From an uncultured Clostridium sp. (lineage in GTDB: Bacteria > Bacillota > Clostridia > TANB77 > CAG-508), in NCBI GenBank assembly GCA_900553125.1, contig USCB01000004.1, positions 13,027 through 77,026 on the forward strand: DNA of 64,000 bases, written 5' to 3'. This document shows, piece by piece, positions 44,761-46,350 of the stretch. The position numbers and the translations under genes were made by a program. The notes under the pieces are model-generated. The model worked only from the letters and a program-made list of their open reading frames with translations. It ran no database searches and was not told the DNA's origin. Positions within the stretch are counted from its first letter, which is position 1; the number at the start of each line of letters is the position of its first letter.

Positions 44761-46350
44761 TTAGTTGAAAAGCTCTTTTACTAATTTATAATACTTCAAA
44801 TAATCGTAAATTTTTATAAGTCGTCTTATATTTGTTCTTAAATCTTTTTCATCACTATCTAGTATATTTTTATTTATAAATAATTCTTGTAATACACTTT
44901 CTATTTCATCTAACTCAATTTTATCTTTACCCAAAAATGGTATTAATCTAGTAGCTTTCGCTAAATCCGTCTTAAAATCATTCCAAAGTTCAAAAACCGA
45001 ATTATATTTTTCCACACATTTACCTTTCTCTCTTATACTTTTTGAAATTATTTTGTCCCAATTATTACTCAAGGATTTTTCTGCAAGCATTTTATGTTTT
45101 CTTTCCTTATCTCTAGATAAATACATATTTAATGGTATAAATCCTGAATTTTGTCTTTGTAATCTTTCACCACACTCCAATAAATCATCATTATCATATT
45201 TTACTAAATCATCCAATATGATACTTCTATACCATTCATTTGCGGTAATTCCATTAAGCCCCTTTATTCCGAAGTCTGAAGCCTTTCCTATTGCAATAGC
45301 CAAATCTTCATCTTTAATTTTTTCATTATTTAACATTGATACCTTTATTTTTTCATTTGGAGTATTTGTAATAACAAATTCTGACAATTGTTCCTTAAAA
45401 TTTCTTAATATTTTGACTGGTATTGTTCTTTTTCTTTTTCCTATTGCATTATACAAAATATTAAAATTACACATTTTTATTTTAGTCATTTCTAAAATTT
45501 TATTATCAATTTTAATAGTATGTTCTGTAATTTCATAGTCACTAATATTAGTATCATATTCTATAAAAATAAATCTATTTTTTAATTCACTCAATTTTTC
45601 ATCTGGCATACACATTACTATATTATTTAATATCTTTTGAATATTAATATCACTTATAGAATATCCCATAAATATAATTGGATATTCCATAAATAAAGTT
45701 AATAACTTTGATGCCAAATATTGACCTTTAGCATCAAATTTTTTATAATCATCTTCATTTATTACAATTGTTTCTGGTCTTGTGACTGATCCATGTATTT
45801 TATATATTTCTCCAATTCCTTGAATATTAGAAAATATTAGTTCATCTTGTCCTATAAAAGTTTTATACTCCTCAATATTATCTTCAAAAAAAGTATCATA
45901 ATTAGTAGTTATAATGCTTGCAATATTTCTTTTTGAAACTCTTCTTAAACTTTCAATTTCATCATCATATTGATGATTTAAAATTGCATTTTCATTTATA
46001 TATTGAGCTATTTCTACTTTAAATGGTGAACATCCCTGTCTTATTTCATTTGAAAAATTTTCATTTAGACTTGATCTAAGCCCTATGTCTTTAAACCATT
46101 TTTCGTTAAAATCCTTTTCTATTAATTCGGCAATTTTTGGGTATAGCATATTATCATTTTTAATTTCTTGTTTTGCTTTATTTAAATAAGCTGAAAATGC
46201 ATATTCGTCATCATTTAATTTTTTAATAAAAATATCCAGTAGCCCTCCCCAGTTTGGTAAATTTAAATATCTCCTTGTTATTCCAGAGCCCATAAATAGT
46301 ATTGGATTTGTATTAAATTTTTTTATAATTTCGTCAATATTCCTCTGCAT
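44761..46350 (-). CDS. SIR2_2-like (sirtuin-fold, DHS-like NAD-binding) protein embedded in the type I R-M operon; candidate defense effector
   Basis: 529 aa; N-terminal ILFMGSGITRRYLNLPNWGGLL, IITTNYDTFFE and IYKIHGSV motifs characteristic of the SIR2_2 family; C-terminal ~280 aa have no recognizable domain; located between hsdS (55-bp gap upstream) and hsdR (320-bp AT-rich spacer downstream). Confidence 0.6.
   Translation of the reverse strand: MQRNIDEIIKKFNTNPILFMGSGITRRYLNLPNWGGLLDIFIKKLNDDEYAFSAYLNKAKQEIKNDNMLYPKIAELIEKDFNEKWFKDIGLRSSLNENFSNEIRQGCSPFKVEIAQYINENAILNHQYDDEIESLRRVSKRNIASIITTNYDTFFEDNIEEYKTFIGQDELIFSNIQGIGEIYKIHGSVTRPETIVINEDDYKKFDAKGQYLASKLLTLFMEYPIIFMGYSISDINIQKILNNIVMCMPDEKLSELKNRFIFIEYDTNISDYEITEHTIKIDNKILEMTKIKMCNFNILYNAIGKRKRTIPVKILRNFKEQLSEFVITNTPNEKIKVSMLNNEKIKDEDLAIAIGKASDFGIKGLNGITANEWYRSIILDDLVKYDNDDLLECGERLQRQNSGFIPLNMYLSRDKERKHKMLAEKSLSNNWDKIISKSIREKGKCVEKYNSVFELWNDFKTDLAKATRLIPFLGKDKIELDEIESVLQELFINKNILDSDEKDLRTNIRRLIKIYDYLKYYKLVKELFN

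Follow-up and report, generated by a model that had tools for sequence, protein, structure and literature searches.

The 64,000-nucleotide (nt) stretch of DNA analysed here (the window; positions 13,027 to 77,026 of contig USCB01000004.1, assembly GCA_900553125.1, from an uncultured Clostridium sp.) contains a type I restriction-modification (R-M) operon in which a gene for a 529-amino acid (aa) SIR2-family protein lies between hsdS and hsdR. Comparative analyses of this gene and its homologs show a conserved, convergent and structured small RNA (sRNA) gene, predicted with defined strand and structure, at the 3' end of the SIR2 gene. The SIR2 protein itself is a full-length member of an already catalogued candidate family, PDC-S25; what appears to be new is the conserved cis-antisense sRNA, which would make this candidate a protein plus RNA module. 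The reading that we favour, with modest confidence, is that the SIR2 protein is a stand-alone NADase (an enzyme that hydrolyses nicotinamide adenine dinucleotide, NAD+), acting as an abortive-infection toxin controlled by a cis-antisense RNA antitoxin of a type I or type III-like kind, independently of HsdMSR.

A first-pass annotation of the window had described the operon layout, including the 529-aa open reading frame (ORF) between hsdS and hsdR, with coordinates that we reproduced exactly, the six-frame ORF list giving the order hsdM, hsdS, 529-aa ORF and hsdR on the minus strand (Table 1). It had also reported a 320-bp AT-rich spacer before hsdR. The spacer is there (321 nt), but it is not empty: its part nearest to the SIR2 gene holds, at 44618-44782, the conserved region of the convergent sRNA gene, including the promoter. 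The constant companion of the SIR2 gene, which the annotation missed, is this predicted RNA and not a protein. The element was found by aligning the SIR2-hsdR spacers of five cassettes. From the last SIR2 codons onward, a block is conserved in DNA even between Clostridia and Bacilli, with compensatory changes in its stems, and C-terminal extensions of some SIR2 homologs (…KELFN, …KELPD) are this sRNA block in translation. In the window the predicted sRNA overlaps the SIR2 stop codon and the last six sense codons.

The structure was tested on an alignment of 43 sequences, by comparing a hand-drawn structure with versions in which the pairing partners had been slid. With the drawn partners 77.7% of cells were paired, compared with at most 49% with slid partners, and the covariation score was 0.326 compared with at most 0.145; changes on both sides were seen in 24 of 30 pairs. 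The strand is indicated by wobble pairs, since 84 cells in helices P1, P2 and P4 are G·U only on the antisense strand (being A·C on the sense strand), versus 5 that are G·U on the sense strand. Folding analyses gave the same direction: the window antisense RNA folds at -30.1 kcal/mol (z = -4.2; sense strand z = -0.27), single-sequence antisense folds range from -30 to -46 kcal/mol (z = -4.2 to -5.3; sense z ~-0.2), and RNAalifold gives -29.9 kcal/mol with 28 pairs for antisense, compared with -3.1 kcal/mol and 7 pairs for sense. A sense-strand RNA or structure in the 3'-untranslated region was rejected, given the z value of ~-0.2 and the presence of the wobble pairs on the other strand; the third hairpin (P5) of the sense-strand model, just 51% paired, was dropped.

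The sRNA is predicted to be ~130-150 nt long across the family and to form two long hairpins. Both have a UUUA loop at the tip and a 5'-GGUG…UGCU-3' motif at the base (pairs G·U, G-C, U·G and G·U); of these pairs, the first three are invariant in the terminator hairpin and nearly invariant in the other. A conserved CUCUUUUA run comes after the second hairpin, in the manner of an intrinsic terminator. Equivalents of the predicted promoter in the window, of the form TTTACA/TTGACA/TAGACA-N16-17-TATAAT/TATACT, occupy a constant position on the antisense strand, just upstream of the RNA, in at least 36 of 58 distinct homolog loci, most of the remaining loci having a variant promoter or one beyond the displayed region. 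In the window, the location of the promoter implies a transcription start near 44653 and a predicted RNA end near 44782.

An nhmmer profile of the sRNA gene matched 61 of 85 SIR2 loci, every match being on the gene's strand (window copy, E=2e-15), with no further match in 1.62 Mb searched on both strands. The start lies -18 to +36 nt from the called SIR2 stop in 59 of these 61 matches, the two outliers being loci with fragmented ORFs. A covariance model (R1) identified 8 confident and 7 marginal further copies at the same position, and overall the sRNA is present at the same place in 69-76 of the 85 loci. The model finds a single copy in the window, at 44652-44782, scoring 78 bits (the window being in its seed), and gives 125 bits for an independent homolog, L101. 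The linkage spans Bacillota, one Methanolapillus archaeon and one Riflebacteria metagenome-assembled genome. No Rfam family overlaps the element in the window, both strands having been searched; the same applies to a consensus-like copy, L004, for which three overlaps score 12-16 bits, compared with gathering scores of 50-80 (E=2.3-9). Nothing relevant was found in the literature linking SIR2 with non-coding or antisense RNA, and no RNA component of PDC-S25 was found described.

Orphan phage-borne copies of the RNA acting as anti-defence decoys were considered and rejected: there are four exact IMG/VR matches on three contigs, of which two adjoin a full SIR2 gene, one adjoins a SIR2 remnant and one is cut by an edge. 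On viral contig IMGVR_UViG_3300045988_064569 (L105:1194-1642) a full sRNA lies beside a C-terminal SIR2 remnant (residues 420-510); the module may be in decay here, or the RNA may have been kept on its own.

The element might alternatively act as DNA, i.e. as a recombination or cassette mobility site or as a protein operator, and not be an RNA gene at all. Its location exactly at the boundary of the cargo carried between hsdS and hsdR, its palindromic stems and the serine or tyrosine recombinases that flank a few homologs are all consistent with such a role. We consider this to be very unlikely, however, because the stems vary by compensatory changes, their sequence itself not being conserved, and because a wobble asymmetry of 84 versus 5 is meaningless for duplex DNA. 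The promoter and U-tract terminator are, moreover, conserved in the right geometry for a transcription unit, no recombinase is consistently linked, and hsd operons with alternative cargo in the same slot have no copy of the element by the covariance model.

The SIR2 protein matches the PADLOC PDC-S25 model PDLC04968 over its full length (E=1.5e-151, residues 2-521 against profile positions 11-515 of 517), and a second model, PDLC04967, with E=4.2e-58; the first-pass statement that this is not a described system is therefore wrong. That annotation was right about the SIR2_2-like N terminus. The motifs that it quoted (LFMGSGITRR..NLPNWGGLL, IITTNYDTFFE and IYKIHGSV) are present in the translation with the catalytic Asn and His intact, and the Pfam match to SIR2_2 (PF13289; residues 145-267) is significant at 85.8 bits, compared with a cut-off of 24.5. 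No other Pfam family was found for the 529-aa protein at E<=0.01, and no NCBIfam family. There are >1,300 full-length homologs (~518-530 aa), mostly from Clostridia, Lachnospiraceae and Bacilli, which where named are called 'SIR2 family protein'. Cultured carriers include Butyrivibrio fibrisolvens 16/4 (L067), Oribacterium sinus DSM 17245 (L006), Eubacterium oxidoreducens DSM 3217 (L035), Petralouisia muris (L023) and a C. difficile strain with homolog P0117. An alignment of 32 homologs reveals conservation over the whole length, with G21-S22-G23, N150 (in TTNYD) and H186 (in KIHG) being invariant; in KomC, the residue aligned with H186 is the histidine replaced in the Protein Data Bank (PDB) entry KomC(H146N).

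The closest solved relatives, by both sequence and fold, are all defence NADases, in line with the effector role first proposed for the protein. A profile search of PDB sequences gave KomC as the closest (8zsf, E=1.9e-16), together with DSR2 and ThsA, and significant Foldseek matches in the PDB are all to defence SIR2 NADases (DSR2, KomC, ThsA, SPARSA, Avs5 and SIR2-HerA), with DSR2 first, and KomC and ThsA also at the top, at a probability of 1.00 each; all of these matches cover the N-terminal domain only. In the AlphaFold model (predicted local distance difference test score, pLDDT, 82.5) the SIR2 domain comprises residues ~1-270 and is followed by a β-hairpin with two helices (272-328), a poorly predicted segment (330-361) and a helical region (362-529). 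The C-terminal part, already noted as being without a recognised relative, is predicted to be an α-solenoid and gives no specific match. From these features we infer an effector that hydrolyses NAD+ and whose small solenoid domain may serve in sensing or oligomerisation. The segment of residues 330-361 (window 45267-45361; TNxPTAxxRVASIDDxRVxDEELVLAIGK) is well conserved yet has a pLDDT of <50 in both the full-length and the C-terminal AlphaFold models, and may be an oligomerisation or conformational-switch element.

That the protein is a housekeeping sirtuin, i.e. a protein deacylase located by chance beside R-M genes, is extremely unlikely. It shares the SIR2 superfamily fold with such enzymes, but SIR2_2 is its sole Pfam family at the threshold used, and canonical sirtuins are weak, non-significant matches (4iao, E=0.77; 4bv2, E=0.46). 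Nor does the distribution of the family fit with a housekeeping role: a genome scan with one genome for each of 185,579 species identified only 558 confirmed loci encoding relatives, a patchy distribution, and these have mobile or defence contexts.

Neighbourhoods were analysed for the best 80 of these 558 loci, with 10-kb flanks. With the HsdM, HsdS and HsdR proteins of the window as probes, the same HsdR type together with the order hsdS-SIR2-hsdR was found repeated in L007 and L022 (Bacilli) only; some hsd-like gene is nearby in about a dozen further loci, and in most loci the surrounding 10 kb are free of hsd genes. Immediate hsd neighbours, from several HsdR families, occur in ~10% of the loci. 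In this survey of hsd linkage, as had been proposed, some homologs are embedded in hsd operons, but only this small fraction adjoins hsd genes. Clustering of the ±5 neighbours of the 80 loci revealed no conserved protein partner. The recurrent neighbours include HsdR of another family, HsdS, PLD-helicase restriction enzymes, BREX pglX/brxC/pglZ, serine/tyrosine recombinases and AlbA_2-like proteins, and Pfam analysis of the 127 immediate neighbours of the 80 homologs identified HSDR_N (8 proteins), Methylase_S (6), ResIII (14) and resolvase (4), as well as TIR, TOTE and Cas3-like domains. At least three kinds of HsdR C-terminal domain are present among the neighbours.

The hsdM-hsdS-SIR2-hsdR cassette recurs in Clostridia (L081-L085) and Bacilli (L007 and L022) at different chromosomal sites; L022 holds all four genes, and in L007 the sequence is truncated upstream of hsdS. 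The same four-gene cassette, at other chromosomal sites, houses the closest homologs, P0002 and P0003 (61-62% identical). Comparison of the closest SIR2 cassettes with the window reveals identities of 85-89% for HsdM and 70-82% for HsdR, but only ~62% for SIR2. Many HsdR proteins that are 88-91% identical to that in the window have unrelated genes in the hsdS-hsdR slot (Table 1); each of these alternative cargo genes ends 3 nt before the hsdR start and so abuts hsdR, unlike the SIR2 plus sRNA unit. Because near-identical sister operons carry unrelated genes in the same slot and few homologs adjoin hsd genes, the SIR2 gene is, judging from these comparisons, exchangeable cargo and not an R-M-dependent partner. 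The alternative slot genes (encoding 412-aa, DUF4238 and 266-aa proteins) and the DUF6602 gene that accompanies the last of them between hsdM and hsdS are themselves unexplored defence candidates.

The first-pass proposals that the SIR2 protein is regulated by the R-M complex, or fires when restriction fails, would in a PrrC-like form have HsdMSR hold the SIR2 protein inactive until a phage anti-restriction protein disables R-M. The precedent is a close one in terms of gene order, as prrC, likewise an abortive-infection effector gene, also separates hsdS from hsdR in a type I operon, with PrrC being masked by EcoprrI and freed by T4 Stp (Payne, Hughes, Fineran & Jackson 2024, bioRxiv 10.1101/2024.01.29.577857), and the recurrence of the four-gene cassette at different sites in Clostridia and Bacilli also speaks in favour of such a guard. 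However, PrrC, an ABC-ATPase/anticodon nuclease regulated by R-M, is nearly exclusive to type I R-M (the same study), whereas the PDC-S25 family is mostly outside hsd operons and has its own RNA partner. Approximately 90% of homologs are without an adjacent hsd gene (HSDR_N and Methylase_S accounting for just the 8 and 6 of 127 immediate neighbours given above), and the rest adjoin varied HsdR families or BREX. Unrelated genes fill the same slot in near-identical operons, SIR2 is far more diverged than HsdM and HsdR between sister cassettes, and the constant partner is the sRNA and no Hsd protein. With the hsdS-hsdR slot being an exchange point, PrrC-like dependence on R-M is unlikely as a mechanism for the family.

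Distant homologs (~29-35% identical) are present on temperate phages and plasmids, including pXO2 of B. anthracis, and fit with a mobile defence gene. On this virulence plasmid (L100:2468-5227) the SIR2 homolog, full-length and ~32-35% identical, adjoins a site-specific integrase, and in the B. cereus prophage phBC6A51 (L099:2480-4096) another full-length homolog in this identity range lies beside lysis genes. In the SIR2-bearing cassette of L084 (7323-9947), hsdS and SIR2 are separated by a gene for a tyrosine recombinase and by an additional, partial hsdS, an arrangement that looks like a phase-variable (shufflon-type) specificity locus.

We infer NADase activity, a defence function and a regulatory role for the RNA from these comparisons. 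In the mechanism that we favour, the SIR2 protein and the convergent structured sRNA would form a two-part mobile module in the exchangeable hsdS-hsdR slot, with the protein being an NAD+-depleting abortive-infection toxin and the sRNA its antitoxin or governor. Two routes of control may be envisaged. The hairpins are weak on the sense strand, so SIR2 transcripts probably read through them and would then be fully complementary to the sRNA; in a type I-like route, the sRNA would pair with the read-through SIR2 mRNA and promote its decay. In a type III-like route the sRNA would instead bind the SIR2 protein. That the hairpin motif is duplicated and nearly invariant suggests recognition by a protein, possibly by SIR2 itself. 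In either case, shut-off of host transcription by phage, or RNA decay, would remove the labile RNA and release the NADase. The module would work without HsdMSR, the embedding giving co-transfer and layered defence.

A more specific proposal is that the RNA is a direct, protein-binding gatekeeper, in which the two GGUG/UGCU-UUUA hairpins hold the NADase inactive or poised via the solenoid or the basic tail, with infection being sensed by loss, cleavage or displacement of the RNA. We put this forward only tentatively; if true, it would be an RNA-gated sirtuin immune effector and a toxin-antitoxin pair of a hitherto undescribed kind, in which the toxin is a large enzyme and the RNA is convergent and structured.

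It may be, on the other hand, that the C-terminal solenoid recognises a phage protein and so turns on the NADase, as in the DSR systems, and that the sRNA is an insulator, terminator or expression damper with no triggering role. According to two reports (PMC11263360, PMC11850899), DSR2 senses the phage tail tube through an α-solenoid C-terminal domain (CTD), and a solenoid CTD is predicted here too. The CTD diverges faster than the SIR2 domain in some close relatives (39-44% compared with 59-60% identity, P0006-P0012), and distant homologs would function without the RNA, which they lack. However, a plain terminator or insulator needs neither its own conserved promoter nor two GGUG/UGCU hairpins, and strict sRNA linkage over Bacillota, the Methanolapillus archaeon and the Riflebacteria genome is unexpected for an insulator. 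The solenoid is, furthermore, of ~170 aa, whereas the non-SIR2 part of DSR2 is >700 aa, and there is neither a sequence nor a fold match to the DSR2 CTD, similarity being absent outside the SIR2 domain. We consider a sensor of this type to be a possibility, albeit a doubtful one.

Several observations weigh against the favoured reading of an RNA antitoxin. The sRNA is absent beside the ~32-35% identical SIR2 homologs of phBC6A51 and pXO2, so the RNA is not required by the SIR2 fold. The CTD is not basic overall (median isoelectric point 6.2, the tail alone being ~10), giving no positive support for RNA binding. The apical loops have only 4 nt, and such loops are poor for kissing-loop antisense recognition. 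A generic terminator scan called no terminator in the sRNA region of the window. Covariance-model E-values are rough, reflecting a shortened calibration and the presence of the window in the seed. Single-sequence promoter matches in the AT-rich window are not above chance, and the case for the promoter thus rests on its conservation across loci. Finally, a 529-aa enzyme toxin under 3'-end antisense control would be atypical for a type I system.

SIR2 NADases are major immune effectors, and a central question for each system is what restrains the lethal enzyme before infection. The known controls are proteins or small-molecule signals, i.e. the tail tube for DSR2, glycocyclic ADP-ribose (gcADPR) for ThsA, deoxyinosine triphosphate (dITP) for KomBC, HerA and Argonaute. 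If our reading is correct, RNA-based control would join this list, and the logic of RNA antitoxins would extend from tiny peptide and RNase toxins to a 529-aa metabolic toxin. There are also practical consequences. Tools of the PADLOC and DefenseFinder style model proteins only, and because the sRNA overlaps the 3' end of the SIR2 gene, start-to-stop cloning of 'PDC-S25' would truncate the RNA gene, with possible toxicity or a false negative as a result. The locus also illustrates clearly how an otherwise conserved type I R-M operon can contain a defined slot for exchangeable cargo, which should be useful for mining further defence genes, such as those for the 412-aa, DUF4238 and 266-aa proteins.

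With respect to the host operon, Pfam, PADLOC and NCBIfam analyses indicate that hsdM, hsdS and hsdR are all intact and on the same strand, as expected for a type I R-M system; the match of HsdR to the NCBIfam model restrict_EcoAI is weak and below the cut-off of the model. At the N terminus of HsdR (residues 23-109), DUF4145 precedes HSDR_N, and DUF4145 is also present in HsdR proteins flanking SIR2 genes (4 of the 127 immediate neighbours). The gap from hsdS to the SIR2 ORF is 55 nt, in which a generic scan found no terminator-like site. The sRNA unit splits hsdR from the hsdM-hsdS-SIR2 transcript, and hsdR therefore presumably uses a promoter within 44440-44617; a search of this region identified none, the weak matches there being not above chance expectation for AT-rich DNA. 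The operon is followed, downstream of hsdR, by murB and a yvcK-like gene, with nfeD and a flotillin-like gene lying beyond hsdM. The listed murB ORF (40119-41117) shares 26 nt with the 3' end of hsdR (window 41092-41117); the true murB start is probably an internal Met, so that the two genes would be directly adjacent, and neither an integrase nor a repeat marks an island boundary at this junction. Related islands carry further genes 3' of hsdR, i.e. DUF5655 (PADLOC PDC-S18, E=8e-105; L088:10359-11252), DUF4357 (PDC-S14, E=1e-101; L081:15369-16193), an AbiLi/AbiLii pair (L081:17320-19217) and a DrmD/DpdE-like SNF2 helicase (L084:15173-17902); none of these is present after hsdR in the window, where murB follows directly.

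Table 1. Features of the type I R-M operon in the window, and genes located in the same slot, or near to it, in related operons
Feature	Position	Strand	Basis
hsdM, type I R-M methyltransferase, 484 aa	47503..48957	-	Pfam N6_Mtase E=1.9e-68 and HsdM_N; PADLOC MTase_I E=4.6e-191
hsdS, specificity subunit, 365 aa, two target-recognition domains	46406..47503	-	Pfam Methylase_S, two stretches, E=2.7e-26; PADLOC Specificity_I E=1.8e-56
SIR2 gene ribosome-binding site, AAGGAGGG	46354..46361	-	read from sequence; graded strong
529-aa SIR2-family protein, member of PADLOC candidate PDC-S25	44761..46350	-	PDLC04968 E=1.5e-151; Pfam SIR2_2 E=4e-24; >1,300 full-length homologs
N-terminal SIR2 (NADase-type) domain, ~aa 1-270	45541..46350	-	SIR2_2, Foldseek, invariant residues
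Catalytic Asn150 codon	45901-45903	-	invariant in 32 homologs
Catalytic His186 codon	45793-45795	-	invariant in 32 homologs; aligns with KomC His146
C-terminal all-helical domain, aa 362-529, predicted small α-solenoid	44764..45267	-	AlphaFold model; no specific relative found
Predicted convergent sRNA, ~130 nt	44653..44782	+	covariance model, nhmmer, folding, covariation, G·U asymmetry
Hairpin SL1 of predicted sRNA	44661-44713	+	
Terminator hairpin SL2 of predicted sRNA	44728-44775	+	
U-run after SL2	44776-44782	+	
Predicted sRNA promoter: -35 TAGACA (44618-44623), 17-nt spacer, -10 TATAAT (44641-44646)	44618..44646	+	11/12 consensus matches
Rest of spacer, sRNA promoter to hsdR start	44440..44617	.	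weak promoter-like matches only, at chance level
hsdR, restriction subunit, 1115 aa, EcoAI-like	41092..44439	-	Pfam DUF4145, HSDR_N, ResIII and EcoEI_R_C; PADLOC REase_I E=5.7e-171
Slot cargo: 412-aa protein	L086:5317-6555		no Pfam or PADLOC match
Slot cargo: 264-aa DUF4238 protein	L088:6203-6997		
Slot cargo: 266-aa protein of no known family	L096:5197-5997		
DUF6602 gene between hsdM and hsdS, alongside the 266-aa slot cargo	L096:3453-4094		

Comparison with toxin-antitoxin (TA) systems reveals similarities at the level of gene arrangement. In type I TA systems with 3'-overlapping convergent genes, such as par fst/RNAII of pAD1 and bsrG/SR4 and txpA/RatA of B. subtilis, formation of an RNA duplex leads to mRNA decay. 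The module described here resembles these in having a predicted cis-antisense sRNA gene with its own conserved promoter and U-tract terminator, the RNAs in both cases being convergent, ~100-200 nt in length, with a 3' overlap and a hairpin terminator, in Firmicute hosts and in mobile-element contexts. It differs with respect to the toxin; the known type I toxins are small hydrophobic peptides (<60 aa) with membranes or the nucleoid as their targets, whereas the SIR2 protein is a soluble enzyme of 529 aa. Type III systems (ToxIN) combine a protein abortive-infection toxin with a structured RNA of repeated units, and two similar hairpin units are predicted here. The ToxI repeats, however, precede the toxin gene on its own strand, and the toxin, an endoribonuclease, processes them, whereas the PDC-S25-linked RNA is convergent and downstream, and there is no RNase domain in the NADase-type protein.

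Among SIR2-based systems, DSR1 and DSR2 are likewise single polypeptides with an N-terminal SIR2 NADase and C-terminal α-helical repeats, and abortive infection via NAD+ depletion would be expected for both. DSR2 is, however, a protein of ~1,000 aa with MID and CTD regions that bind the phage tail tube; no DSR model is among the PADLOC matches of the SIR2 protein, only the SIR2 domain of which aligns to DSR2 structures, and the DSR papers retrieved report no RNA partner for DSR1 or DSR2. With KomC of the Kongming system, the TM-score normalised to KomC is 0.62-0.64 over ~262-271 aligned columns, with the catalytic His aligned. KomC is a SIR2-only protein of 264 aa which, as indicated by PDB entry titles, operates in helical filaments together with KomB and a dITP signal; the PDC-S25 protein has an extra C-terminal region of 260 aa and resembles KomC in the SIR2 domain alone, the window has no komA/komB-like neighbour, and the 80 loci have no conserved protein partner. 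ThsA of Thoeris also has a SIR2 domain (PADLOC ThsA1, E=8e-17; PDB 6lhx, 8bto), followed by a C-terminal SLOG domain that binds gcADPR made by the TIR protein ThsB. The ThsA matches cover residues 115-264 only, the CTD is a predicted α-solenoid and no SLOG domain, and a TIR gene is absent from the window locus, with TIR proteins being 2 of the 127 immediate neighbours. SIR2-HerA (GAO_19/Nezha) has an adjacent HerA helicase gene; HerA is missing from the recurrent clusters and the top families of neighbours here, and in the window the SIR2 gene is flanked by hsdS and hsdR.

The closest correspondence is with PDC-S25 itself. The PDC models derive from clusters of proteins of which one or more had been found inside a BREX, DISARM or type I R-M system, and the experimental validation in that study was of Hma-embedded candidates only, not of PDCs (Payne et al. 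2024, bioRxiv 10.1101/2024.01.29.577857); among the literature found, PDC-S25 is otherwise mentioned only in a defence-system inventory of an E. coli O157:H7 strain. The gene studied here is likewise a single-gene SIR2 candidate, and its embedded position matches how the models were derived: the gene lies within type I R-M in the window, L007, L022 and L081-L085, and BREX pglX/brxC/pglZ adjoin in 3-4 loci. Whereas PDC-S25 has been defined by protein models alone, the present analysis adds to it a predicted convergent sRNA and an exchangeable slot within the hsd operon.

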